From Citrobacter sp. Marseille-Q6884 (GTDB taxonomy: Bacteria; Pseudomonadota; Gammaproteobacteria; Enterobacterales; Enterobacteriaceae): 32,000 nt of DNA. Position numbers and translations under genes: made by a program. Under the pieces are notes generated by a model. It made no database searches and was not told the origin of the DNA. It saw nothing but the letters and a program-made list of their open reading frames with translations. The stretch covers positions 741,513-773,512 of the forward strand of contig NZ_CAMDRE010000002.1 of the NCBI RefSeq assembly GCF_945906775.1. The letters run 5' to 3'. Numbering within the stretch: the first letter of the stretch is position 1; each line of letters starts with the position of its first letter. Shown here one piece after another: positions 1 to 31,804 of this stretch.

Positions 1-12
1 GGAGTCAGTCAT
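1..12 (-). CDS. fliL: 5' end of fliL (flagellar basal-body-associated protein), runs off the window
   Basis: Reverse complement of 1-12 reads ATG ACT GAC TCC (MTDS), the N-terminus I recall for Salmonella FliL. It follows fliK on the same strand as in fliK-fliL synteny. Only 4 codons are visible. Confidence 0.4.
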
Positions 13-116
13 CAGATACGGGCTTCCTGTTTCGGTACAGCTTATGGCCTGATTATCCCGTGTCCTGACCACAACAAAGCGTGGAAAAGACGCGGATAAT
101 CATGCTACCTCTGGCG

Positions 117-1331
117 TTAGGCGAAGATGTCTACCGCGCCATCACCGCGTGCCGCAGCGTGCAATGAGGCCGGTGTTGCCATCACGGCGTCATCTTCAGC
201 GGCAAAAATATCGTGTCCCTGACTACGGCCAGTCTGTTGTTGTTGCGCAGAAGACTGCTGTTGACCCGCGAAACTTTCGCTGCTGATGCTGCTTTGCCCC
301 AACTGAATCCCACTTTCAGCCAACTGAGTGCGCAGCATCGGTAACGCGGCTTCCAACGCGGCACGAACGTGGCTGTGCGGCGACACCATTTGTAACTGCG
401 CCAGGTTGTCATCCAGTTTGAGTGAAATCTGTACCTGACCCAGATCCTGCGGATGCAGTCGCAGTTCAGCACTTTGCTGACCCTGACGCGTGAATAAGGT
501 GACGTGCTGGCTCAGCGATTGCTGCCATTCATGGCTTCCCAGCGGCGCGCTCAACACGGGAGCGGCTGTCGGCAGAGGCTGTGCGTGTGGCGAACTGCCA
601 GCCAGCGGAGCGACTGCGATACCCGCAGTGGTAGGGGAAGGGGTGCTTTCAATCTCACTTCTGGCCGCAGCGGCCGCTGTCAACGGGGTGATTGTTGGAT
701 TGCCGGACGGATCTGCGCTACTGGTGTGCAGTGCAGCCTCGGTTTTGCCTTTTTTCACATCGCCTGGCGCGAGTTCGACGGCATTATCCGCAGCACCGCC
801 GTGCGCCGTACCGCGTAAAAGCGCGGTCAATGCGCTATCCGCCGGTGCTGATGGGGTTTCTGCAACAGGTGTCACGATCTGCTGTCCTGGCAGCATGGCA
901 AACAGCGCGCTCAGGCTGGCGAGATCCTCGTCGCTCAGAGTGGTGGTGTTTTCATCCTGTTGGGCGGTTTTGCCCAATGCTGTCAGCGCATTAAGCTTCG
1001 TCGATGGCGTCAGTGTTGACAGCAGTTGCTGTGCATCCGTCAGATCGGTCAGTGAGGCATCTGTCTGTGCCGCTTTTTGTGTCAGAAGGTCGGCTAATGT
1101 CGTGGCGTGTGCTGTATCGCCATTTTTTTGCAGCAACCCTTTTTGCAGTTTGCTGCCTGCCGCCTGTAAATCAGCCAGCGACAGCGGGGCATCTTTACTC
1201 TGAGCATCGCCCGCGCCTAATGCGCCAGCCAGTAGAGCCAAAAAATTCTCGGGTGAATCTACCGCTTTTCCTGACTGAAGACCTGCGGCTACGTCGGTGT
1301 CGGGGGTAATCAGTTGGGGCAAAGTAATCAT
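117..1331 (-). CDS. fliK: flagellar hook-length control protein FliK
   Basis: 404-aa ORF. The N-terminus MITLPQLIT... and the C-terminal block [11 protein letters not shown]...[50 protein letters not shown] match Salmonella FliK as I recall it. Its start overlaps the fliJ stop by 4 nt. Confidence 0.93.
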
Positions 1332-1771
1332 TCGGGTTTCCTCATAGCTGCGCGCTGAGCAAATTCATCCATTTTCTTCTGATCCAGGCGGTTTTCAGCC
1401 AGTAAAGCCGCCGTCGTTTGTCTGTCCTGCAGGGTCTGCCACGCCTGAAGCCGTTGCTTTTTATCGCGCCAGCTGCTCAGCGCCTGGTCAACTTTCTGCG
1501 TCCACTGGTTAAGCTGTTGGCGGTGCTGCTCAATGGCTTTTTCCAGCGTCTGAATAAATTGCTGGTAGTTAAGCCAGCGGTTACTGGTAATTCCCTGACC
1601 CATATCGCTGTTGAGATTGGTGCGGTACTCATGCTGATAGTCGATCAGCATCTTTAACTGTTCTTCTGCCTGCTGACAGCCACGACGCATTTCTCCCAAC
1701 AGAATCGCGGCGTCATCGACCTCTTTTTCCGCCAGATCTTTCAGTGTGGCCAGCGCACCATGTTGTGCCAT
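1328..1771 (-). CDS. fliJ: flagellar export chaperone/stalk protein FliJ
   Basis: 147-aa [24 protein letters not shown]...[10 protein letters not shown], near-identical to Salmonella FliJ from memory. It lies between fliI and fliK. Confidence 0.93.
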
Positions 1772-1792
1772 GACTTATGCTCTCCTGCTTTA

Positions 1793-3162
1793 TCACGCCC
1801 CAGGGAAAATCAGCTCCAACGCCTGCAGAGAGTCTTCCCAGTCAGCGCGCTCAAAGATGCCTTGCTGCAAAAAGGCTTCCAGTTGCGGCCACAACGCGAT
1901 GGCTTTATCCAGCATCGGGTCACTGCCTTTGGCATATGCTCCCACGCTGACTAAGTCACGGTTACGCTGGAAACTGGACAGCAGCTGTTTAAAATTACGC
2001 ACCCGCGTGTAGTGCTTTTCACTGATAAGCGACGTCATTGCGCGGCTGATGGATGCTTCAATATCAATGGCCGGATAGTGGCCAGCTTCGGCGAGATGAC
2101 GTGACAGCACGATGTGTCCGTCCAGAATCGCACGGGCAGAGTCCGCGATCGGATCCTGCTGATCATCACCCTCGGTCAGTACGGTATAAAACGCGGTCAC
2201 TGACCCGCCGCCATGAATCCCGTTCCCGGCGCGTTCGACCAGCGCGGGTAATTTGGCAAACACTGACGGTGGATAACCTTTGGTTGCAGGCGGTTCACCG
2301 ATAGCGAGAGCAATTTCGCGCTGTGCCATCGCGTAGCGGGTGAGGGAATCCATAATCAACAGGACGTGTTGCCCGCGATCGCGAAAATCTTCGGCAATGC
2401 GTGTGGCATAGGCCGCTCCCTGCATACGTAACAGCGGTGAGACATCAGCCGGAGCGGCAATCACCACGGAACGTGCGCGACCCTCGGTGCCGAGAATGTT
2501 TTCGATAAAGTCTTTCACTTCACGACCACGTTCGCCGATCAGTCCGACGACGATGACATCGGCCTGGGTGTAACGCGCCATCATGCCGAGCAGGACGCTT
2601 TTACCGACGCCTGAACCGGCGAAAAGCCCCATACGCTGGCCACGACCAACGGTGAGCAGCGCATTGATCGGGCGTACCCCGGTATCCAGCACGTGCTCAA
2701 TGGCGGTTCGTTGCAAGGGGTTAAACGGCGGCGTAATTAACGCCCCGGTTTCGGTGGTATCGGGGGCGGGCAGACCGTCGAGCGGTTTACCGCTGCCGTC
2801 GAGCACGCGTCCAAGCAGGGCCGGACCCAGCGGTAATTGTTTCCCGCTTTGCAGACCTTCTCCGGCCATGTTTTTGGCGTAAACGCGCGCGCCGGGCAGC
2901 ACGCCTTCAACTTCTTCGAGCGGCATCAGAAACAGGCGTTGACCGTTAAAGCCCACCACTTCACTTTCGACTTCCTGGGTTTCGTTACCTTCCTGGCGTT
3001 CAATCACGCAGGTTGCGCCCAACGGCAGTTGTAAGCCGGTCGCTTCCAGTACCAGCCCCGTTGCGCGGGTCAGGCGTCCGTAGCGGCGGACTGACGGAAG
3101 CAGCGACATTTTCTCTTCGAAGTTATCCAGCGTGTTGAGCCAGCGAGTCAGGCGAGTGGTCA

Positions 3163-3163
<1 letters not shown>
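1793..3163 (-). CDS. fliI: flagellum-specific ATPase FliI
   Basis: 456-aa ORF with Walker A GSGVGKS and an LLIMDSLTR Walker-B region. It resembles F1-beta/T3SS ATPases and is very close to Salmonella FliI. Confidence 0.97.
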
Positions 3164-6530
<3,367 letters not shown>

Positions 6531-6746
6531 CTCGCACCTCGTGGATTATCGTGGACGGCGTTTTTTGCAAAGTGGAACAAGACTCACTCCCGGGTCAGCA
6601 AACTCGAAAAATTGACGGTCTCATTATTTGCGGTTTCAAATTTTTCTATGCGCCAAAAACCGAGGTTTTTTATCGTTATTTAACGCCTTTATCCTATTGA
6701 CGAACTGGTAATCTCAGCTACGTAAAAAAACATCCAGGGGATCAGA
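6531..6746. promoter_or_regulatory. divergent fliF / fliE class-2 flagellar promoter region
   Basis: A 216-bp AT-rich intergenic region lies between divergent fliF and fliE. In enterobacteria this region carries FlhD4C2-dependent class-2 promoters. I did not map individual boxes. Confidence 0.5.
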
Positions 6747-7061
6747 ATGTCGGCAATACAGGGGATTGAAGGGGTCATCAGCCAGCTACAGGCCACGGCG
6801 ATGTCCGCAAAAATGCAGGATGTACAGCCACAATCGACCGTGAGTTTCGCCGGTCAACTGCATGCGGCGTTGGACAGAATCAGCGATACGCAGACGGCTT
6901 CTCGCGTTCAGTCAGAAAAATTTGCGTTGGGTGAACCGGGTATTGCGCTAAACGATGTGATGACCGATATGCAAAAAGCATCTGTCTCAATGCAGATGGG
7001 CATTCAGGTGCGTAACAAACTGGTGTCGGCGTACCAGGAAGTGATGTCGATGCAGGTGTAG
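6747..7061 (+). CDS. fliE: flagellar hook-basal body protein FliE
   Basis: 104-aa [21 protein letters not shown]...[10 protein letters not shown], divergent from fliF. Confidence 0.95.
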
Positions 7062-7087
7062 GTTCACTAACCTAATGATATTTATAG

Positions 7088-8383
7088 TTAATACCCATCC
7101 GATCCTACTGCGTGGGGCATGGATGGGGCAAACTCACTCAATTTCTGGTTGAGTATGAGTACCTGGTCATGATTGTTTTCCGCCATCCAGGATCCGTAAA
7201 CCCTGTAAACCATTTGTGCATCGGTGTGTCCCATTTGCTTCGCGATGAAGTTAGGGTTGGCACCGGCAGCTAACGACCAGCATGCGTAAGTATGTCGTGA
7301 TTGGTATGCTCTGCGATAACGAACTCCGGTGCGTCTCATTGCCGCCTCCCACGACTGGTTGATCGATCCCACTGCGTAATGATGCCCTGCACGGCCATTG
7401 CGCGATACTATTTGTGGGTTGAAAACGAATGTGCATGGATGCACATCAGCACGACCATATTCACGCAGTTTCACCTCAACCTGATATTGCTTTCCTAACC
7501 TGGTCATTTCAGCCTGGTTCTTCAGCACATCGATGGCTGGCTGAATTAGGTTTATGATACGGTCCGTTCCGGCCTCAGTTTTTGGAAGGGTGAACTCCTT
7601 CGTTAAAGTGTGGTTGCGACGGATCATCATCGTTCCTGCTTTCAGATCGATATCTTCCCATGCCAGCGATACCAGTTCCCCATGCCTAACCCCCGTGTAC
7701 ACTGCCAGCGACCACATGTTTTTCAGTTGTTGATGAGTACATGCGTTAATGAGTCTGACGAACTCCTCTCGTGTGAGTGGATCTGGTTCAGTACGTGACC
7801 GTTTAAGCATGGAAATACCGCTAAACGGATTTGCCTTAACATAACCACTGTCCGCAGCGAAGTTAAACATTCCTGACATCGTTCTCATGTAGTTGTTGAC
7901 CGTTCTGACAGACCGACCTTTTATCGGCGTTTTCTGTCCTGTCTTCAATACGTGATAACCGGTTAATAACTCCTTCCTGATAAACAGCAGGTCTTCCTGC
8001 GTCACAGCAGATACCAACTTATCGCCACCAATTCTCGGCACCATGTTGCGCGTTATTGATGAATAGCGCGACATCGCATTGGTGCTGATCTCCATACGCT
8101 TCAGTTCAAGCCACTTATTCGCCAGCTCAAGCACGGTGATCTCCTTGCTCTCCACCCCAAACTTTCTCAGGTTCGGTGAGTCCGGGAACTGAGCGGCATA
8201 GTTGAAGTTTCCGGTCTTAATCGCGAAGCACACCGACGCGCGCAGCTCGCCAGCGATCTTTCTGTTTTTTGGTGTATCCGGCACGCCGAGGCTTTCACGC
8301 ACCCGGCTGCCTTTATAGATGAACCATATGCGGAGCGTTCCGCCGTGGTTCTCCACGCCTGTTGGGTATGCTGACTTAGCCAT
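7088..8383 (-). CDS. int: tyrosine integrase
   Basis: 431-aa ORF with a strong SD (AGGAGGG). The catalytic-domain signatures are ...YTGVRHGELVSLAWEDIDL (Arg), QSRHTYACW (H-x-x-R) and MGHTDAQMVYRVYGSW (His, Tyr). It sits next to xis at the prophage edge. Confidence 0.93.
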   Translation of the reverse strand: MAKSAYPTGVENHGGTLRIWFIYKGSRVRESLGVPDTPKNRKIAGELRASVCFAIKTGNFNYAAQFPDSPNLRKFGVESKEITVLELANKWLELKRMEISTNAMSRYSSITRNMVPRIGGDKLVSAVTQEDLLFIRKELLTGYHVLKTGQKTPIKGRSVRTVNNYMRTMSGMFNFAADSGYVKANPFSGISMLKRSRTEPDPLTREEFVRLINACTHQQLKNMWSLAVYTGVRHGELVSLAWEDIDLKAGTMMIRRNHTLTKEFTLPKTEAGTDRIINLIQPAIDVLKNQAEMTRLGKQYQVEVKLREYGRADVHPCTFVFNPQIVSRNGRAGHHYAVGSINQSWEAAMRRTGVRYRRAYQSRHTYACWSLAAGANPNFIAKQMGHTDAQMVYRVYGSWMAENNHDQVLILNQKLSEFAPSMPHAVGSDGY

Positions 8384-16485: not shown

Positions 16486-17193
16486 TTAACCGTGTCTGCG
16501 GAACTGCTGTGACTGGCTTAGCATTACTCTACCAGATACGTGAAGCATCGCAGCCTCTTCAGGGCTTATGCTCCACTCTCTATACTTTGGGTTGTCCGAG
16601 ATTACGAACAGATCATTTTTAACTTTTTGAAGACGTTTGACGAAAGTATCACCATTGAAATCGAAAACGTAAATACCATCGCCATCGAAGTAATTGACTC
16701 TGATATCCACAAAAATCAAATCGCCCGGCTCAATGGTTCCCTGCATACTATCGCCGCGCACATTGATAAGCTTCACTGATTTTTGAGGGATGCTACCAAA
16801 TATAGATTTTGCCTGGTCAACGTCATACTCAATTGATCGGACAACCTCCACAATGTCTTTTGATGGCGAGCCATTGCCTGCGCTGGCGGAAACGTTAAGA
16901 ACATCAACCCTATACACATCCTTTTCCTCTCGACTGTTTAGGGAATCTACACTGTATGAATCTACAGTATTTCCCTCATCATCGGAAGAGAATAGTACAG
17001 CTACAGGAACATCGAGAGCTTTCGCTATTTTTCTTAGAAGCTGATCGCTATACCCTTGAATGCCACGCTCAAGGCGTGAAAGGTTACCGACGTCGCTATC
17101 TACAAGAAGCGCCATCTCATTCAATGTGTATTTATTTTTCTTCCTAAGAAGTCGTATCTTTTCACCTACTTTCATATCTTCATTAGAAAACAT
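16486..17193 (-). CDS. cI: cI-like prophage repressor (XRE HTH plus S24 LexA-type autopeptidase domain)
   Basis: 235-aa ORF. N-terminal HTH (YTLNEMALLVDSDVGNLSRLERG), a candidate Ala-Gly cleavage site (SASAGNG), Ser nucleophile GDSM and Lys in FVKRL. It is divergent from cro and AT-rich. Confidence 0.9.
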   Translation of the reverse strand: MFSNEDMKVGEKIRLLRKKNKYTLNEMALLVDSDVGNLSRLERGIQGYSDQLLRKIAKALDVPVAVLFSSDDEGNTVDSYSVDSLNSREEKDVYRVDVLNVSASAGNGSPSKDIVEVVRSIEYDVDQAKSIFGSIPQKSVKLINVRGDSMQGTIEPGDLIFVDIRVNYFDGDGIYVFDFNGDTFVKRLQKVKNDLFVISDNPKYREWSISPEEAAMLHVSGRVMLSQSQQFRRHG

Positions 17194-18018: not shown

Positions 18019-18906
18019 ATGGCCCGTTCACGAAACATAAAGCCAGGCTTTTTCACCAATGATGAACTGGCTGAATGCTCTCCATATGCCCGCCTACTTT
18101 TTGCCGGGTTGTGGACTATAGCTGACAAAGAAGGGCGATTGGACGATCGCCCAAAGAAAGTAAAAGCAATGGTGCTGCCTTTCGATGATGTGGACTGCAA
18201 TGATCTGCTTCAACAGCTTCACAGCCATAAATTCATCAACCGATATCAGGTAAATGGTGATTCATACATCCAAATAAATAACTGGAAGAAGCACCAGAAC
18301 CCTCACTGCAAAGAAGCTGCTAGTGAGATACCAGAACCAGTAGAGAACAATGACAGCACCGGACAAGAACAGTGCAAGGACGATAAAGAGGAAGACAAGA
18401 AGGATACTGATGAACCTCAAGTCATTGAAAATAATGAAGCACCAGAAAAGCACCATGCAAGCACAGTGCAAGAACAAGTAGAGAACAATTTAAATCCTGC
18501 TGATTCCCTTAACCTGATTCCTGATTCCCTCATTCCTCATACTGATTCCCTTTCTAACACCCAAGCCGCTGATGCGACTTGCGAAGGGTCTGAGGCTGAT
18601 GTCCATAAAATTTCAAGTCGCTATGCATTCGAAGGAAATATCGTTCGGTTAAACCACAAGGACTACGAAGCCTGGAGACGCCTGTATCCGAACATTGACC
18701 TGAAGTACGAACTGGAAAAGCTGGATATCGAATTTAGCCATGAGAAGCCAAAGAACTGGTTTATCACTGCTAGCCAGAAACTTAGCTACCAGAACAAGCA
18801 AGCGCTATCCAGACCGGTACGCAAGGTTGCTAATGGCCTTCAGTCTGAAGGTTTTGCGTCGAAGGACTACGGAAAAACTGAAATCCCATCCTGGGCTCAG
18901 GAGTGA
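18019..18906 (+). CDS. replication initiation / replisome organiser protein (functional analogue of lambda O)
   Basis: 295-aa ORF after cII. The N-terminal NIKPGFFTNDELAE..PYARLLFAGLWTIADKEGRLDDRP pattern recurs in phage replication proteins. The gene contains an internal iteron array and is followed by a DnaC-like loader. Confidence 0.7.
   Translation: MARSRNIKPGFFTNDELAECSPYARLLFAGLWTIADKEGRLDDRPKKVKAMVLPFDDVDCNDLLQQLHSHKFINRYQVNGDSYIQINNWKKHQNPHCKEAASEIPEPVENNDSTGQEQCKDDKEEDKKDTDEPQVIENNEAPEKHHASTVQEQVENNLNPADSLNLIPDSLIPHTDSLSNTQAADATCEGSEADVHKISSRYAFEGNIVRLNHKDYEAWRRLYPNIDLKYELEKLDIEFSHEKPKNWFITASQKLSYQNKQALSRPVRKVANGLQSEGFASKDYGKTEIPSWAQE
18499..18552. repeat. iteron array (candidate ori) inside the replication initiator gene
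   Basis: TGATTCCCT occurs at 18501, 18522 and 18543, plus TGATTCC at 18515, at about 21-bp (two helical turns) spacing. An AT-rich, acidic-coding stretch flanks the array on the left. Confidence 0.6.
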
Positions 18907-19760
18907 ACATGACACTGGACGAAAAGATTTTCTCTCTGGAAAAGATGCTTTCAGAGCTATCACAGCCACCGTTAGAAATTCCAAACAGCACTGTTGAGTT
19001 TGATGATGCCACCTGCGAAATACATGGACCGTTTCAACAGCGCCGACGCGTATCGACTACGCACATAAAAATACCAACCGTTCCGTCTCGTTGCCCTGGT
19101 TGCATTCGGGATGAGCTAATCGAACTACAGGCTGAAAAAATTCGCATCGATGAGGCATCTCGCAAGAGAAATATCGAAATGCTGATGGAGGCGTTAGACA
19201 TACCAAGCCGTTTTTTGTTCTGCACCCTACAGAACTACGAGCCAGTAAACGACGATGCTCAACGCGTTCTGAAAGTCTGCCAGGCGTACGCTAACCGATG
19301 GCCTGAGCGATTGAAGAAAGGTGGTGGACTCGTAATGTGTGGCAAGCCTGGAACCGGTAAGAACCATCTCGCTTTTGGTATCGCTCGGATCGCCATTGCT
19401 GAGCATCAAAGCTCGGCTGTATTCACCACCGCTCTGAAAATTGCCCGAGAGTACAAATCAACCTGGTCGAAGGGTTCAACGCGCACTGAAGACGATGTGA
19501 TCCGCTACTTCACCAAGCCAGACCTGCTGATCATCGATGAGGTAGGGGTACAGTTCGGAAGTGATGCCGAGAAGCTGATCATGTTCGAAATCATCAACAC
19601 CCGATACGAGCGCATGAAGCCAACCATCCTGATTAGCAACCAGACCAAAGAAGAACTGGCAGCATTCATCGGTGAGCGCGTCATAGACCGCATGAGCGAC
19701 GGCGGTGGCTGCACTCTGTCATTCACCTGGGATTCATACCGATCGAAGGGGGCCGCATGA
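18903..19760 (+). CDS. DnaC/IstB-like AAA+ helicase loader
   Basis: 285-aa ORF with GTGA overlap with the initiator gene. Walker A CGKPGTGKNHL and Walker B DLLIIDEVG. Confidence 0.85.
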   Translation: MNMTLDEKIFSLEKMLSELSQPPLEIPNSTVEFDDATCEIHGPFQQRRRVSTTHIKIPTVPSRCPGCIRDELIELQAEKIRIDEASRKRNIEMLMEALDIPSRFLFCTLQNYEPVNDDAQRVLKVCQAYANRWPERLKKGGGLVMCGKPGTGKNHLAFGIARIAIAEHQSSAVFTTALKIAREYKSTWSKGSTRTEDDVIRYFTKPDLLIIDEVGVQFGSDAEKLIMFEIINTRYERMKPTILISNQTKEELAAFIGERVIDRMSDGGGCTLSFTWDSYRSKGAA

Positions 19761-25627: not shown

Positions 25628-25818
25628 CCCGCACCGATATCGACAACTATCAGCGCTCGTCAGTAGAGCGTGCTACCAGGCTGACTCCTTACGCAAGAAG
25701 CGAAATAGCCCGTCTGGATGTTGAGACAGCAGAACTTCAGAAACGCATCGATCGGAACAACGAATTACGCCGTGAAATCATCAACCGCGCAAACATGAAC
25801 AAGGGGCCGTCAGCATGA
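25624..25818 (+). CDS. hypothetical protein (64 aa)
   Basis: ORF with ATGA overlaps at both ends, between the nin genes and Q. Confidence 0.5.
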   Translation: MTRTDIDNYQRSSVERATRLTPYARSEIARLDVETAELQKRIDRNNELRREIINRANMNKGPSA

Positions 25819-26315
25819 AACTGGAACTAACTGCAGATCAACATCGCTGGATAGATAACTGGCTTCACCTTTGGGGCGCGTGGGCTCAGACCGGTAAAAT
25901 CGACAAATCGATGATTAACATGATCGCCAATTTCATGGCGACAGTCGAAGGGCAACAATCCAGCCGACCGATGTGTAGTGATGATGATGGCATGCTGATT
26001 GATGCAGTGCTGCGTCATTACCTGAAGAACGTCGATGAAAACGCGTGGCGGGTAATTTTCGCTTACTACGTCTGCAACTCCAGCGAGATACGGATCGCCT
26101 CATGGCAGCATGCTGTCAGCAAACCACGCCTGATGAAGACCCGCGCCGGTAACCAGTACAAGCGCCCGAGCCTTTCTACTACTCGCAGAGAAGTGAAAGA
26201 AACCATCAATGCAGCGTTGTTCTGTTTGTATCAACCGCTGCAAAATGCTTTCAACGGTCGTGAAAGTGTGAGGAAAGTTGCAAAAAATGTTCACAACGTG
26301 CTTGCATTCCAATGA
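25815..26315 (+). CDS. Q: late-gene antiterminator Q (QuuD / phage-82 type)
   Basis: 166-aa ORF immediately upstream of the late promoter and lysis region. LWGAWA, SRPMCSDDDGMLID and YYV parallel E. coli QuuD (LERWGAWA...SRPQCCDDDAMII...YYV) from memory. Confidence 0.78.
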   Translation: MKLELTADQHRWIDNWLHLWGAWAQTGKIDKSMINMIANFMATVEGQQSSRPMCSDDDGMLIDAVLRHYLKNVDENAWRVIFAYYVCNSSEIRIASWQHAVSKPRLMKTRAGNQYKRPSLSTTRREVKETINAALFCLYQPLQNAFNGRESVRKVAKNVHNVLAFQ

Positions 26316-26567: not shown

Positions 26568-26577
26568 ATATCAAACA

Positions 26578-26600
26578 GGTCGCTTAGGCGGCCTTTTTTA
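26578..26600 (+). terminator. intrinsic terminator
   Basis: GGTCGC-TTAG-GCGGCC followed by TTTTTTAT. Confidence 0.7.
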
Positions 26601-26659
26601 TTGCACCAAATCCCTACCAGGACCATAAGAGCGAAAGCTCAACGCACTACCCTCATCTT

Positions 26660-26684
26660 GCCCACTTCGCCGTGGGCTTTTTTA
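26660..26684 (+). terminator. intrinsic terminator (tR'-like)
   Basis: GCCCAC-TTCGCC-GTGGGC followed by TTTTTTAT, about 100 nt upstream of the holin gene. Confidence 0.7.
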
Positions 26685-27000: not shown

Positions 27001-27497
27001 TGTCTCCAGCATTGCGGAACAGCGTACTTGGTGCCATTGGTGGCGGGGCTATTGCTATAGCTTCTGTGCTGATCACCGGTCCGAATGGTAATGATGGACT
27101 CGAAGGCATCCGATACGAGCCGTATCAGGATGTTGTTGGGGTGTGGACCGTGTGCTGGGGTCATGCCGGCAAAGACATTATCCTCGGCAAGACCTACACA
27201 AAATCCGAGTGTCAGGCGCTGCTTGATAAAGACCTGAACACCGTGGCGCGTCAGATTAACCCGTACATTAAGGTTCCCATTCCAGAAACGACTCGAGGGG
27301 CGCTTTACTCATTTGTCTACAACGTCGGCGCTGGCAACTTCAAAACATCCACACTGCTACGCAAAATCAACCAGGGTGACATCCAAGGTGCATGCGAACA
27401 GTTAAAGCGATGGAATAAAGCCGGTGGCGTTGTCTGGAAAGGATTGATTACCCGGCGTGAAATTGAGCGTGAAGTCTGCGAGTGGGGGCAGAAATGA
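27000..27497 (+). CDS. R: SAR endolysin (GH24 lysozyme, R21-like)
   Basis: 165-aa ORF. The N-terminal signal-arrest-release segment is [18 protein letters not shown]. The catalytic region GLEG..Y.PY.D.VGVWT.C.GH is near-collinear with phage 21 R. Confidence 0.92.
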
Positions 27498-27955
27498 GCC
27501 GGTTAACCGCAATCATCATTGCCGTTGTCGTCTGCATCATCGTGTCGCTTGGCTGGGCTGTTAATCACTACCGCGATAACGCCTCCGAATACAAGAAACA
27601 GCGCGACGAGAAAACTAAGGCGCTGAATATGGCTAACGACACTATCACCGACATGCAGACCCGCCAGCGTGATGTTGCTGCTCTGGATACCAAATACACT
27701 CAGGACTTAGCTGATGCGAAAAAGCAGCTTGATGATTTGCAGCGTTGCGTTCGTGATGGCAAGTGTGGGTTGCGCGTCAACGCAAAATGTCCCACGAACG
27801 GAGCGACCGGCACCGGCAGCCTGGGCGATGCTTCCGGCCCCCGACTTACAGACTCCGCTCAACGGGATTATTTCACCCTCAGAGAGCGAATTGCCACAGT
27901 GACTAAGCAGGTCGAATATCTGCAGGACTACATCAAGACGCAGTGCCTGAGGTAA
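27494..27955 (+). CDS. Rz: i-spanin Rz
   Basis: The ATG at 27494 ([21 protein letters not shown]...) gives an N-terminal TM segment followed by a coiled-coil periplasmic domain. It directly follows the endolysin gene. Confidence 0.88.
27714..27902 (+). CDS. Rz1: o-spanin Rz1 (embedded in the +1 frame of Rz)
   Basis: 62-aa ORF within Rz. It has a lipobox (VMASVGC) and a Pro-rich mature part ([22 protein letters not shown]). Confidence 0.85.
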
Positions 27956-27958
27956 GAG

Positions 27959-28159
27959 GTGAGAAAGCGAGAGCGCGAAGTAACATTGCTCTACGGAATA
28001 TCACTCATACGCGATGACGTTCTCAATCATCCTGAGATAAAGCCAACGCTGGCTGACAGAATAATCACCCTCATACACCACTTTTTCTACATCGCATCTG
28101 CGCTTGTTATCGCAGCGTCAGGATTCGCATTCTTCATCTGGTCATCGACATTTCTGTAA
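27959..28159 (+). CDS. small membrane protein (66 aa, GTG start)
   Basis: The GTG lies 7 nt after GAGG, right after the Rz stop. The C-terminal hydrophobic helix is IITLIHHFFYIASALVIAASGFAFFIW. Confidence 0.45.
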   Translation: MRKREREVTLLYGISLIRDDVLNHPEIKPTLADRIITLIHHFFYIASALVIAASGFAFFIWSSTFL

Positions 28160-28189
28160 GTCGATGCAATACAACAACCGGAGCCAACA

Positions 28190-28432
28190 ATGGCAGAGCT
28201 AAATACCATGACTGACGAACAGAAATTCAAGTTAGAAATTTACAAGCTGGTCATGAGCCAGAATGCGGCCGCTGAAGAAGCTTTCTCCTTTATCGGGACT
28301 GACCAATTGAAACTGGAGTTGTTCAAAATCCACTTTCAGGCAGGCGGCGCGAATTCAGATGTCACTACTCGAACGATTGAGGCTGTGCGCAAATCGAAAG
28401 AAGCGTTGGGCCTTTTCACTACCGGAGCATGA
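28190..28432 (+). CDS. small helical hypothetical protein (80 aa)
   Basis: The ATG lies 6 nt after GGAG. The stop lies 1 nt before the start of the next gene. Confidence 0.55.
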   Translation: MAELNTMTDEQKFKLEIYKLVMSQNAAAEEAFSFIGTDQLKLELFKIHFQAGGANSDVTTRTIEAVRKSKEALGLFTTGA

Positions 28433-28433
28433 T

Positions 28434-28934
28434 ATGACCACTGTTGCATGGGACGGAAAGACATTGGCATCTGACACCCAGGCTTCAACTGGTGATGTCG
28501 TTTGCTCTCTCAGTGAGCAGAAGATTTACACTGCTCCATCATCAGGATGGGAAGTGTACGGAGACAAGATCGTTGCCGTTGGGTGCTCTGGTGATTGCGG
28601 AGCTGAAATGGAACTGCAAGAACTCATGACGAATGGCCTGACATATGCCACTGAGTTTCTCCCAACCTTCGGATTCTCTGCCATAGCTATTATTGGCCAC
28701 GGTCGAGCGTATGTAATTAGTAAAAAAGAAGGTGATACCCGGGCAAATATTTCGCTTCAGGTTGAGCCTTACGCCATAGGTTCTGGTGGATTAATTGCCA
28801 GAGCTGCAATGCGATGCGGTAAAGACGCTCGTGATGCTGTACGGGTAGCGATTGAGATGGATTGCTACTCAGGCGGCAATGTCGATTCATTCACCATCGA
28901 CCAACTGCCATACATCATTGTGGGGAAAGATTAA
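28434..28934 (+). CDS. HslV / proteasome-beta-like Ntn threonine peptidase (stand-alone)
   Basis: 166 aa from ATG 28434 (GGAG 6 nt upstream). It starts MTT like HslV. Asp in LASDTQAS (compare IAGDGQAT) and Lys in EQKIY sit at the same relative offsets as HslV D17 and K33. Also AVGCSGD (compare AGFAGGTAD) and an identical AIGSGG. Confidence 0.7.
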   Translation: MTTVAWDGKTLASDTQASTGDVVCSLSEQKIYTAPSSGWEVYGDKIVAVGCSGDCGAEMELQELMTNGLTYATEFLPTFGFSAIAIIGHGRAYVISKKEGDTRANISLQVEPYAIGSGGLIARAAMRCGKDARDAVRVAIEMDCYSGGNVDSFTIDQLPYIIVGKD

Positions 28935-29006
28935 ATGACACTTAAAAAAGGTCGAAGCAAAAAAGTTATCGGTGAGAACATCGCAACCGAAATTAAAGCC
29001 CACTAA
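28935..29006 (+). pseudogene. short (23-codon) copy or 5' fragment of a small Lys-rich protein gene
   Basis: MTLKKGRSKKVIGENIATEIKAH* starts right after the previous stop (TAAATG). Its TAA shares 2 of its 3 bases (29004-29005) with the TAG of the convergent HNH gene (29003-29005). It is paralogous to the N-terminus of the 29606-29743 ORF. Confidence 0.35.
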
Positions 29007-29596
29007 GTGGGCTTGGTGGTGGAGTTTGGTGCGTGCGGAGTGTGCTTCATATGCCTCAATGAATGGCAATTTGGGCATAACGGAATCAGATTACTAGGGT
29101 GATTGTTAAGTCTGTTTTCGTCATCATGATGAACTCCAATTATTCTTGGCTCTTCATCATATCCGCAATCGTGACACTTATTTAACATGCCCCTAACAAG
29201 CATCCATTTTCTTGCTGTTGTAAATGATGCTGGTGATTCACTCCCCATTACCCGGTAATCAAAAGAGCATTGCTTACTGCAGCAATCTTTATCGGCGCTG
29301 GGTGATGTGAAAAAAGTCTCATTGCAAAAAAGACATTTTTTCTCAACCGTCCCTTTCTTGTTCATCGCTTTGTAGTAACAAGATCTTGAGCAATATTTTG
29401 CTTTGTTTGAGCGGGATGATATGTGACTAAACTCATTTCCGCACGTCACGCAGTTCGCTATTACCTGCACCTTAGCTGCATGCGCCAGACATGAGCGAGA
29501 GCAGTATTTAAAAGACTCAAGTCTATTTTTAGGTACGTAAACAATCTTTCCGCAATGTTGACACGGCAATTCAGATCCAGTTTTTAAATAACCCAT
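29003..29596 (-). CDS. HNH endonuclease with three N-terminal zinc-ribbon repeats
   Basis: 197-aa ORF. Three repeats of C..CG/N...(10-14)...(Y)C(S)(R/K)(S/Q)C, then VHHDDENRLNNHPSNLIPLCPNCHSLRH (HNH). It is AT-rich and on the opposite strand to all its neighbours. Confidence 0.85.
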   Translation of the reverse strand: MGYLKTGSELPCQHCGKIVYVPKNRLESFKYCSRSCLAHAAKVQVIANCVTCGNEFSHISSRSNKAKYCSRSCYYKAMNKKGTVEKKCLFCNETFFTSPSADKDCCSKQCSFDYRVMGSESPASFTTARKWMLVRGMLNKCHDCGYDEEPRIIGVHHDDENRLNNHPSNLIPLCPNCHSLRHMKHTPHAPNSTTKPT

Positions 29597-29605
29597 AGGT
29601 GATTT

Positions 29606-29743
29606 ATGCCCTTATCGAAAGGTAGTGATAAAAAGACGATTAGCTGAAATATCAAGAAGCTAATTGTACAAGAAAATAAGCCAAAAGACCAGGCGGTCGC
29701 AATTGCTATGAGCAAGGCCGGTAAGAAAAAGAAAGGAAAATAA
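29606..29743 (+). pseudogene. small Lys-rich protein gene interrupted by an in-frame TGA (29645-29647)
   Basis: An AGGTG SD precedes the ATG. [44 protein letters not shown] is read in one frame. It ends 2 nt before the terS ATG. Confidence 0.4.
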
Positions 29744-29745
29744 TT

Positions 29746-30390
29746 ATGCAGAAACCGGACTGGGAAAGGATTGAGGTTGATTACCGGGCCGGTGTTCTTT
29801 CTGTAAGAGAAATTGCATCAAGCCAGGGAATATCTCATACCGCCATAAACAAGCGGGCAAAAGGTGAAGGGTGGGAGCGAGATCTAAACGCAAAGATTAA
29901 TGCCAAAGCTGATGCCTTGGTTTCCAAGCGCGAGGTTTCCACTAAGGTTTCCACCGGAAACTCAATTTCAGAAAAGCAGATTGTCGAAGCCAATGCGGAG
30001 GTTATCGCTAATGTTCGCATGGAGCATCGAGGCGATATACGAAAGGCTCGGGCGCTAACTAATGCGTTGCTGAATGAGCTTGATGCTGAATGCTCTGACG
30101 TTCCGGCTCTTGAGCAGCTTGGTGAGTTGCTAAGGCGAGAAGATGATAAGGGAATGGATAAGCTAAATGACCTTTACCACAAGATCATTAGTTTACCTGG
30201 CAGGGTGAAAGCCATGAAGGATTTAGCTGATAGCCTGAAAAACCTTATCGCACTTGAGCGACAGGCCTATGGGCTAGATAACCCTGATGCAGGTAAAAAT
30301 ATCCCCCTCAAAGATAAAACTGACGACGAGCTAACGCGGCGCATTCAGGAGCTAATGAATGGAAAATCTGACGCGGGAGCAAAAGCTTGA
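29746..30390 (+). CDS. terS: terminase small subunit
   Basis: 214-aa ORF directly upstream of and overlapping terL. The N-terminal HTH-like region is DYRAGVLSVREIASSQGISHTAINKRAKGEGW. Confidence 0.75.
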   Translation: MQKPDWERIEVDYRAGVLSVREIASSQGISHTAINKRAKGEGWERDLNAKINAKADALVSKREVSTKVSTGNSISEKQIVEANAEVIANVRMEHRGDIRKARALTNALLNELDAECSDVPALEQLGELLRREDDKGMDKLNDLYHKIISLPGRVKAMKDLADSLKNLIALERQAYGLDNPDAGKNIPLKDKTDDELTRRIQELMNGKSDAGAKA

Positions 30391-31804
30391 GTTGGTTCAG
30401 CTTTTAGAAGAACAAAAGCGACGCCAGCACGTCTATAGGTATCGCGATTACTATGCGACGCGCTATGACTGGCAAAAGAAATTTATTTCCCACACCGCAA
30501 ACTTTTCACAGGTTGCGCTGATCGCCGCTAACCGAGTTGGTAAAACTGACACTGCAACATTCATTGATGCCATTCATGCTATTGGAGATTATCCAGATGA
30601 CTGGGCAGGTCATAGGTTTACGCATGCTCCCCTGATCTGGTGCCTTGGGTATTCAGGTGAAAAATGCCGTGACTTACTTCAAACCCCTCTAATTGGCCGT
30701 AAGACGGATAAGGGATGGGAAGGTGGGCTAATACCAGGTGAACTGATCACCGGCACTGAAATCATGCAGGGAACTGCCAATGCCATGCGTTCGGTGTATG
30801 TGAAACATAAATCAGGTGGCGTCTCCAAGATTCAGTTCTGGTCGTATTCACAAGGACAGCATGCATTGATGGGTGACGCCGTCGACTGGTTCCACATTGA
30901 CGAAGAGCCAAAGGATCCGACCATTTACCCCCAGGTGCTGACGCGAACCGCAACTGGCGACTCAGGCAATGGCGGGCGTGGCATTCTGACTTTTACGCCA
31001 GAGAACGGGCGCACAGAGTTGGTTATCCAGTTTATGGATTCTCCTTCATCTGCACAGCATTGCATGAATGTAGGCTGGGACGACGCACCTCACCTTAGCG
31101 ACCGGGTCAAAGAAGAATTGCTAGCATCATTCCCTCCGCACCAGAGAGATATGCGAACCAAGGGTATACCAATGCTTGGGCATGGCCGGATTTATGATGC
31201 CAGCGAAGAACTTATCACCTGCGACCCGTTCCCAATCCCCGATCACTGGTTTGTTATCGACGGCATGGACTTCGGTTGGGATCACCCACAGGCGCACGTC
31301 CAGTTAGCCTGGGACAGGGATGAAGATAAGTTCTACCTGACCCGCGCATACAAGGCCAAGCAGACATCACCAGCTGAGGCGTGGTTCGCCACCAAGATGT
31401 GGGCGAATGGCATACCGACAGCGTGGCCGCACGACGGCCTGCAAACGGAGAAAGGATCAGGGCTCCAGCAGAAGACGTATTACGAGGAGGCCGGCTTCGA
31501 CATGTTGCCTGACCGCGCTACCTGGGAAGACGGCAGCAACTCAGTTGAGGCTGGCCTGTTCGAGTTGTACGACCTAATGCGCTCTGGGCGACTGAAAGTA
31601 TTCCGCGGTCTGCGTGACTGGTTCGAGGAATACAACTTCTACCACCGTGACGAAAAAGGCCGCATCGTGAAGATCCGCGACGACCTGATGGACGCCACCC
31701 GCTACGCATACATGATGCGCCGGTTCTCCATCCGTTACGGTGATATTGGCAGGCCGAAATTCAATGACTACTCAAACTACAACATACCCTGCGGAGTTGG
31801 ATGA
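30359..31804 (+). CDS. terL: terminase large subunit
   Basis: 481-aa ORF. Walker A-like AANRVGKT, Walker B-like VDWFHIDEEP, and a C-terminal nuclease-like region (IDGMDFGWDHP...DDLMDATRYA). Confidence 0.9.
   Translation: MENLTREQKLELVQLLEEQKRRQHVYRYRDYYATRYDWQKKFISHTANFSQVALIAANRVGKTDTATFIDAIHAIGDYPDDWAGHRFTHAPLIWCLGYSGEKCRDLLQTPLIGRKTDKGWEGGLIPGELITGTEIMQGTANAMRSVYVKHKSGGVSKIQFWSYSQGQHALMGDAVDWFHIDEEPKDPTIYPQVLTRTATGDSGNGGRGILTFTPENGRTELVIQFMDSPSSAQHCMNVGWDDAPHLSDRVKEELLASFPPHQRDMRTKGIPMLGHGRIYDASEELITCDPFPIPDHWFVIDGMDFGWDHPQAHVQLAWDRDEDKFYLTRAYKAKQTSPAEAWFATKMWANGIPTAWPHDGLQTEKGSGLQQKTYYEEAGFDMLPDRATWEDGSNSVEAGLFELYDLMRSGRLKVFRGLRDWFEEYNFYHRDEKGRIVKIRDDLMDATRYAYMMRRFSIRYGDIGRPKFNDYSNYNIPCGVG

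Follow-up and report, generated by a model that had tools for sequence, protein, structure and literature searches.

A PPH-type threonine hydrolase of the proteasome/HslV fold, carried as a single-gene cassette in the lysis-to-terminase interval of a Citrobacter prophage

Threonine proteases of the proteasome type play a central part in protein turnover, and their phage branch, PPH, has so far been without experimental study. It has been previously reported by Fuchs, Alva and Lupas (2021) that PPH is among 22 new proteasome homologues, that its members are about 140 residues long and occur in tailed phages and prophages, and that in the cluster map PPH branches out from the cluster of BPH (PMC8665760). 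In the same survey helix H2 was absent only from PPH and the related RPC, propeptides were absent in all of the novel homologues, and the authors expected unprecedented quaternary structures (PMC8665760). Here we describe a protein of this kind, of 166 amino acids (aa), in a 32,000-nucleotide stretch of Citrobacter sp. Marseille-Q6884 (contig NZ_CAMDRE010000002.1, positions 741,513 to 773,512), which we call the window and which contains a lambdoid prophage adjoining the host flagellar genes fliFGHIJK. The protein is encoded by the last of three open reading frames (ORFs) on one strand that follow the lysis genes (P21-type holin, endolysin and Rz); all three lie where an initial annotation of the letters had placed them. 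That annotation had described the protein as a stand-alone HslV-like protease with two small partners.

We found that the 166-aa protein matches PHROG 1040, "peptidase HslV family", with an E-value of 1.6e-33. A profile made from an alignment of 21 of its homologues (A1), which was also the basis of the AlphaFold2 model, was run against all PDB sequences, and the matches were confined to HslV and proteasome beta chains, with HslV the best of them (E 2.7e-5). The AlphaFold2 model had a predicted local distance difference test score (pLDDT) of 92.8 and a predicted template modelling score (pTM) of 0.87. Foldseek returned 156 matches in the PDB at E<=1e-3, of which the top 50 were all HslV, BPH or 20S beta subunits, with template modelling scores (TM-scores) up to 0.66 and a probability of 1.00 among the top matches; in BFVD, dozens of uncharacterised phage proteins share the same fold. 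These results support a stand-alone N-terminal nucleophile (Ntn) threonine hydrolase of the proteasome/HslV fold, as had been proposed. The novelty implied for the protease did not survive: the family is not new, as PPH was described in 2021 (PMC8665760), PHROG 1040 exists, and many phage records already carry the label "peptidase HslV family".

Alignment of the protein to E. coli HslV by a hidden Markov model paired D14 with D17, K30 with K33, G53 with G48 (the oxyanion-hole glycine) and the AIGSGG motif with an identical AIGSGG. Across the 21 homologues of A1, residues M1, T2, D14, K30, G53, G116-S117-G118 and D143 were invariant. Wider searches gave 64 close homologues, together with 8838 cluster representatives (50% clustering) at E<=1e-3 and 3267 at E<=1e-10. 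In the best 150 of the 8838 representatives, to which all conservation counts refer, T2 was kept in 145, D14 in 148, K30 in 145, G53 in 149, S117 in 137 and D143 in 135, and residue 146 was always Ser, Thr or Cys, so that the catalytic Thr, Asp and Lys picked out earlier are indeed conserved among homologues. E. coli HslV starts with MTT, has no propeptide, and carries its Thr at the N terminus after Met removal. The 166-aa protein begins with the same three residues and would likewise expose Thr, as had been noted; 139 of the 150 representatives start with "MT", and position 1 of the profile falls on residue 1 in nearly all of them, which indicates that the family has no propeptide. An alternative ATG at 28359, giving 191 aa and overlapping the upstream gene, was rejected on account of these starts, the homologues beginning with MTT. 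The claim that the HslV catalytic geometry is retained was right in part: the motifs are real and the Asp-to-Lys spacing is equal (16 residues), but the Thr-to-Asp spacing is 4 residues shorter (12 versus 16), owing to a first hairpin that is shorter than in HslV.

The traits of PPH recur in this protein: it has a proteasome-like compact beta-sandwich core with equivalents of Thr1, Asp17, Lys33 and Gly47, has neither a propeptide nor H2, is encoded among tailed phages and prophages of Proteobacteria, and has no associated unfoldase (PMC8665760). In the AlphaFold2 model, helices are confined to residues 57-66, 119-127 (H3) and 132-142 (H4), with strands at 81-97; one predicted helix (57-66) stands where H1 and H2 would be, so that H2 appears to be missing. 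Together with the phage context, this apparent loss would place the protein in PPH and not in the sister group AAH, PHROG 1040 serving only as a proxy. The protein differs from PPH as described in its length, 166 aa versus about 140; the best 150 representatives have a median of 159 (5th to 95th percentile 139-231). The extra residues form a disordered C-terminal tail and a beta-hairpin, SSGWEVYGDKIV (residues ~33-47, window 28530-28574), between Lys30 and the Gly53 loop. This hairpin is present in the enterobacterial lambdoid clade and not in the more distant members P0060-P0064; lying near the active site, it could shape specificity.

HslV (ClpQ), the peptidase of the HslUV ATP-dependent protease, shares with the 166-aa protein the fold, the MTT start, the Asp-to-Lys spacing and the AIGSGG Ser loop, and is its best sequence-profile match among solved structures (see above). 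In contrast to HslV, the 166-aa protein fails the curated HslV models, has no adjacent hslU, and combines the shorter first hairpin and the apparent lack of H2 with a residue other than Lys at the position of Lys28. BPH of Thiobacillus denitrificans (PDB 5OVS; E 6.5e-7, TM-score 0.63) is likewise a group I homologue without a known unfoldase; known features of BPH are the presence of H1 as well as H2, a long acidic pore loop and assembly into heptameric double rings. The best-conserved non-catalytic block of the 166-aa family is H3-H4 (119-142), with a mean top-residue frequency of 0.51 versus 0.26 for H1 and no insertion. In proteasomes these two helices make the ring-to-ring contact (PMC8665760), and their conservation is compatible with oligomeric assembly or stacked rings, without proving it.

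Relatives of the protein were found by tblastn in 181 sequenced phages, whose hosts include Salmonella, Klebsiella, Erwinia, Escherichia, Pseudomonas, Vibrio, Aeromonas and Caulobacter; 216 IMG/VR stretches also contain relatives. Jumbo phages (SPN3US, EL, phiEaH2) and Jerseyvirus are among the carriers. When the region was compared by megablast with phages and with 5,426 complete E. coli genomes, the only match was a single E. coli prophage, in part and at 78% identity, and no phage was close. The place of the gene varies. Jerseyvirus has it immediately 5' of the holin gene, and Jedunavirus within the tail module, in an island of opposite orientation. VLCpiS13a carries it between terL and portal, Gungnir39 among genes for head-tail connectors, and in SPN3US it is gp001, with tRNAs next to it. 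What these places share is that the gene sits at a seam between late modules, as mobile accessory genes typically do. The nearest to an experimental study that the literature gave concerns jumbo phage RAY, in which the accessory gene product gp116, labelled "HslVU protease family", is reported to localise to the phage nucleus.

In the window, the flanking Rz and terS genes bear out the accessory slot to which the protease had been assigned, and a DNA alignment defined the mobile unit. Window 28430|28935 corresponds to 3241|3247 of locus L090, an insertion or deletion of the protease ORF alone, exactly at its boundaries; in L090 the stop of the 80-aa gene is followed directly by the small basic ORF that follows the protease in the window. 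The 80-aa gene itself belongs to Pfam DUF2560 (136.1 bits versus a threshold of 25, profile positions 2-72 of 72), a family found in 177 phage records that include P22 orf80 and also known as HkbM in HK620. The GGAGCATRA junction at the DUF2560 end is conserved between the window and loci L090, L091 and L092, and the protease ORF starts 1 nt past the DUF2560 stop. This tight packing had been taken as a sign of a module. The 59-aa ORFs orf59c of P22 and hkbN of HK620 follow DUF2560 with the same stop-plus-1-nt junction, so that the spacing is a property of the slot, in which GGAGCATRA serves any next gene. Compared with the 80-aa protein, P22 Orf80 and HK620 HkbM are 85-86% identical and occupy the same late-operon position before terS; they differ in that the next gene is the 59-aa ORF and no protease is there.

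A further locus, L092, is 98% identical in DUF2560 and, at the amino-acid level, in terS and terL, and its slot is filled by two unrelated genes. The second of these encodes an HEACH motif resembling those of zinc metallopeptidases, which suggests that a different putative peptidase may sit in the same slot. We then clustered the same-strand neighbours of PPH in 134 loci representing 40 protease lineages (55% identity). The commonest, counted by lineage, were terL (8), Rz (7) and endolysin (6), and DUF2560 reached 3; no AAA+ gene, hslU included, recurred beside PPH in this set. An HslU-like AAA+ protein is also absent from the window, as had been reported, the only AAA+-type phage ORF there being a DnaC/IstB-like loader. 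Taken together, these results demonstrate that the PPH gene is a self-contained single-gene accessory cassette in the slot between lysis genes and terminase.

The two ORFs upstream of the protease had been proposed as its partners, which would make a three-gene module: the membrane protein of 66 aa and the DUF2560 protein would act as anchor, regulator or substrate of the enzyme. Each of the three ORFs has conserved homologues and is therefore real and not a chance reading frame. The 66-aa protein has a hydrophobic helix at residues 42-60 (mean Kyte-Doolittle value 2.17); the 80-aa protein is predicted, with low confidence, to be all-helical, and its single-sequence AlphaFold2 model (pLDDT 57) was left unused for fold searches. 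The module is favoured by the close packing of the genes on one strand and by the recurrence of the trio in 8 of the first 85 loci (L004, L005, L008, L009, L025, L027, L029 and L030, with 66-aa copies 48-97% identical). In a forward test on 79 IMG/VR loci fetched with the protease, to which the metagenomic contigs L004 and L005 are extra, DUF2560 lay within 5 kb of PPH in 30, mostly directly upstream of it, and all 30 were among the 44 loci whose protease was at least 41% identical. The distribution otherwise went against the module. DUF2560 was found in 0 of the 35 more distant PPH loci and in none of the jumbo-phage, Jerseyvirus and Jedunavirus contexts, and the 66-aa gene in 6 of the 79 loci besides L004 and L005. 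In the reverse test, on the 80 closest DUF2560 viral loci, PPH was present in 2 and DUF2560 thus stood without the protease in 78; the 66-aa gene was present in 4, of which 3 were without PPH. P22 and HK620, both with DUF2560, were not among the phage records matched by PPH. Loci L090, L091 and L092 carry homologues of the 66-aa gene and no PPH; in L090 and L091 both small genes are 95-98% identical to those of the window, and the L090 alignment above involves a single gene. In L004 a PPH 98% identical to ours accompanies a DUF2560 only 44% identical, which indicates that recombination separates the two genes. Copies of the 66-aa protein at 92-95% identity occur in 4 more DUF2560 loci, and a tblastn search with it against sequenced phages gave no match; this gene tracks DUF2560 more than PPH. 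Distribution has therefore largely refuted the three-gene module, which we now regard as very unlikely: DUF2560 is an independent neighbour and no dedicated partner of PPH, and neither the two partners nor the co-occurrence of all three genes as a unit holds across genomes.

Two side observations concern the same slot. A 95-aa ORF stands between DUF2560 and the protease in L001 (phage Dewey), L015, L017 and L024, and L034 and L041 show the reverse order, DUF2560 coming after the protease. The inserted ORF and the reversed order indicate that gene order in the slot is fluid.

With moderate confidence, we propose for the 166-aa protein the role of an accessory protease expressed late, compact and without a propeptide, of the HslV/BPH/20S-beta fold, carried as a single-gene cassette and activated by Met removal. 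A consensus scan of the + strand found no promoter-like or terminator-like site between 26677 and 29782; the absence of such a signal between the hairpins that follow Q and terS suggests late, Q-dependent expression, in an operon whose start is marked by Q and the two hairpins. The signature of a moron was likewise not seen in or just after the three genes, where the + strand had neither a promoter-like nor a terminator-like site and the GC content was unremarkable (0.485 versus 0.493 for the prophage). The cassette would thus share the transcript of the Q-dependent late operon, and its translation would start from the ribosome-binding site within the end of the upstream gene. Host methionine aminopeptidase would remove Met1 to leave the Thr nucleophile, as in E. 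coli HslV, and Asp14, Lys30, Gly53, Ser117, Asp143 and Ser146 would complete an active site of the proteasome type. The enzyme, probably a homo-oligomer, would then cleave some host or phage protein late in infection, needing neither a phage-encoded unfoldase nor the 66-aa and 80-aa proteins. As close relatives do without it, PPH would be dispensable for the basic lytic cycle.

Several points weigh against this proposal. Pfam and NCBIfam gave no significant family for the 166-aa protease, and Pfam Proteasome (PF00227) was unreported for it even at E<=1; its placement comes from PHROGs, profile searches and structure. Sequence similarity to the HslV models of NCBIfam is weak (TIGR03692, 12.0 bits versus a cut-off of 157.75; PRK05456, 11.6 versus 137), and the 20S beta models were also below their cut-offs (TIGR03634, 18.6 versus 224; TIGR03690, 15.6 versus 191.9). 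In the literature searched, phage HslV-like or PPH proteins appear in annotation-level mentions, with no biochemical or genetic study of their function, and the activity, oligomeric state and substrate of PPH are what we infer. The differing contexts in distant phages mean that a single shared role is not guaranteed. Late expression, for its part, is predicted from simple consensus scans, and a lysogen-expressed promoter of another type would be possible.

Among the alternatives, the enzyme might use a host unfoldase, PPH replacing or joining host HslV and working with host HslU to degrade selected proteins. HslV is among its nearest solved relatives, the MTT start and missing propeptide are those of E. 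coli HslV, the phage encodes no unfoldase, and groups of enterobacterial relatives carrying this PPH clade are known to encode HslU. We nevertheless consider this unlikely. HslV and 20S beta subunits present their H2 face to the neighbouring ring or to HslU, and H2 is missing from our model. Lys28 of HslV anchors the C-terminal tail of HslU, and the aligned residue in the PPH family is Ser, Thr, Glu or Leu, never predominantly Lys. Taken together, the apparent loss of H2 and the non-Lys residue are weak arguments against HslU of the host being used in the canonical way, and BPH shows that group I homologues can do without an unfoldase (PMC8665760). A taxonomic argument against dependence on HslU was dropped, as the table and the text of the family paper disagree on the distribution of PPH (PMC8665760). 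The protein could instead be a specific ligase, transpeptidase or amidase and not a degradative protease, for which connectase, a proteasome homologue that is monomeric and ligates proteins, is a precedent. In a compact family that has lost H2 the canonical barrel architecture is not assured, its describers anticipated unprecedented quaternary structures (PMC8665760), and the extra hairpin beside Lys30 and Gly53 could serve such a specificity. We think a ligase-like activity quite unlikely: connectase and Anbu chains did not appear in the first 50 structural matches, the strands that come after Lys30 in the model have no helices between them, where connectase has its two-helix lid, and the conserved H3-H4 ring-contact block fits stacked rings.

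A morphogenetic role, for example in head or connector maturation, would fit the many lineages in which PPH lies near terminase, portal or connector genes (Gungnir39, VLCpiS13a) or directly 5' of a terS homologue (L016, L031, L047, L048 and L076). Known prohead proteases have other folds, however, and prophages with 66-aa and 80-aa genes 95-98% identical, or terS and terL 98% identical, do without PPH, which is also absent from P22 and HK620 and differs in position between lineages. We find this role highly improbable, and the earlier judgement that the enzyme is probably not a morphogenetic protease stands. That the protein is a catalytically dead remnant or purely structural is hardly credible; the full catalytic set is kept across hundreds of diverged lineages, which would not be expected of a pseudoenzyme. 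A narrower form of the accessory protease that we favour can also be imagined, namely an unfoldase-independent viral proteasome-like enzyme, acting late on one specific target and traded as a one-gene counter-defence cassette. A host protein of immunity or the stress response that recognises products made late by the phage could be its target, as could a factor that controls when lysis occurs. We offer this reading as speculative and fairly unlikely. PADLOC matched no defence-system model to any of the three proteins. The loss of H2 and the extra hairpin might give the enzyme an assembly or specificity unlike any characterised proteasome homologue.

The locus adds no new family. It offers a clean natural pair, with and without the protease, whose flanking genes for the 66-aa and 80-aa proteins are 95-98% identical, and it removes the misleading lead of two partner genes. 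The target of PPH, if determined, would explain why a miniature proteasome subunit without an unfoldase is found in over 180 sequenced phages, ranging from P22-like prophages to jumbo phages. The features of the window, and the two genes that fill the slot in L092, are collected in Table 1.

Table 1. Positions of the features discussed (window coordinates, except for the last two rows, which are in L092 coordinates)
Feature	Positions	Strand	Evidence or remark
Host flagellar operon fliFGHIJK	117-6530	-	host flank
Integrase of prophage	7088-8383	-	beside fliFGHIJK
CI-like repressor	16486-17193		replication genes come after
DnaC/IstB-like helicase loader	18903-19760		sole AAA+-type phage ORF in window
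HNH endonuclease, 259 aa	24848-25627	+	phrog_374, 1.7e-63; immediately 5' of Q antiterminator
Q-like antiterminator	25815-26315	+	phrog_943, E 1.1e-66
Terminator-like hairpins downstream of Q	26577-26594, 26660-26677		terminator scan
Rz spanin	27482-27955	+	Pfam Phage_lysis 1.3e-39; phrog_13 3.2e-68; left limit of cargo slot
Embedded 62-aa ORF within Rz	27714-27902		putative Rz1, by position only
66-aa protein, C-terminal transmembrane helix	27959-28159	+	GTG start, GAGG 6 nt upstream
80-aa DUF2560 protein	28190-28432	+	Pfam PF10834, 4.8e-40
Shine-Dalgarno GGAG	28424-28427	+	inside DUF2560 3' end, 6 nt before PPH ATG
PPH-type proteasome/HslV-fold N-terminal threonine hydrolase, 166 aa, MTT start	28434-28934	+	PHROG, AlphaFold2, Foldseek, profile
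Small basic ORF remnant, 23 codons	28935-29006	+	phrog_2423; right boundary of PPH cassette
HNH endonuclease	29003-29596	-	phrog_1271, 1.9e-25; context only, outside protease cassette
Terminase small subunit (terS)	29746-30390	+	phrog_1206, 4.6e-79; right limit of cargo slot
terL	30359-31804		L004 terL homologue carries Terminase_6N/6C
L092 slot gene, 95 aa	3247-3534		phrog_11049
L092 slot gene, 123 aa	3546-3917		phrog_1365; HEACH motif, reminiscent of zinc metallopeptidases

At the junction of prophage and host we found no tRNA gene (window 1-8383); a divergent 104-aa ORF lies by this junction at 6747-7061. The prophage has two HNH genes, which flank the late-operon start and the terminase. 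The one near the terminase is part of an insertion of about 690 bp that is not in L004, L090 or L092 (window 28997-29686 has no counterpart in L004 and L090) and has a GC content of 0.418 versus 0.49 for the prophage. This insertion shortens the small basic ORF upstream of terS to 23 codons; the ORF is intact in L092 and L004 (44-45 aa), where it has its normal place just before terS, and the intact L092 copy matches phrog_2423. Finally, the first of the hairpins downstream of Q (26577-26594) is followed by a T-run, and an exact 28-nt copy of window 26577-26604 is found at 2911-2938 of L092, between a 72-aa ORF and DUF2560 and within the cargo slot. It could be a terminator that moves between loci, or else mark a boundary.

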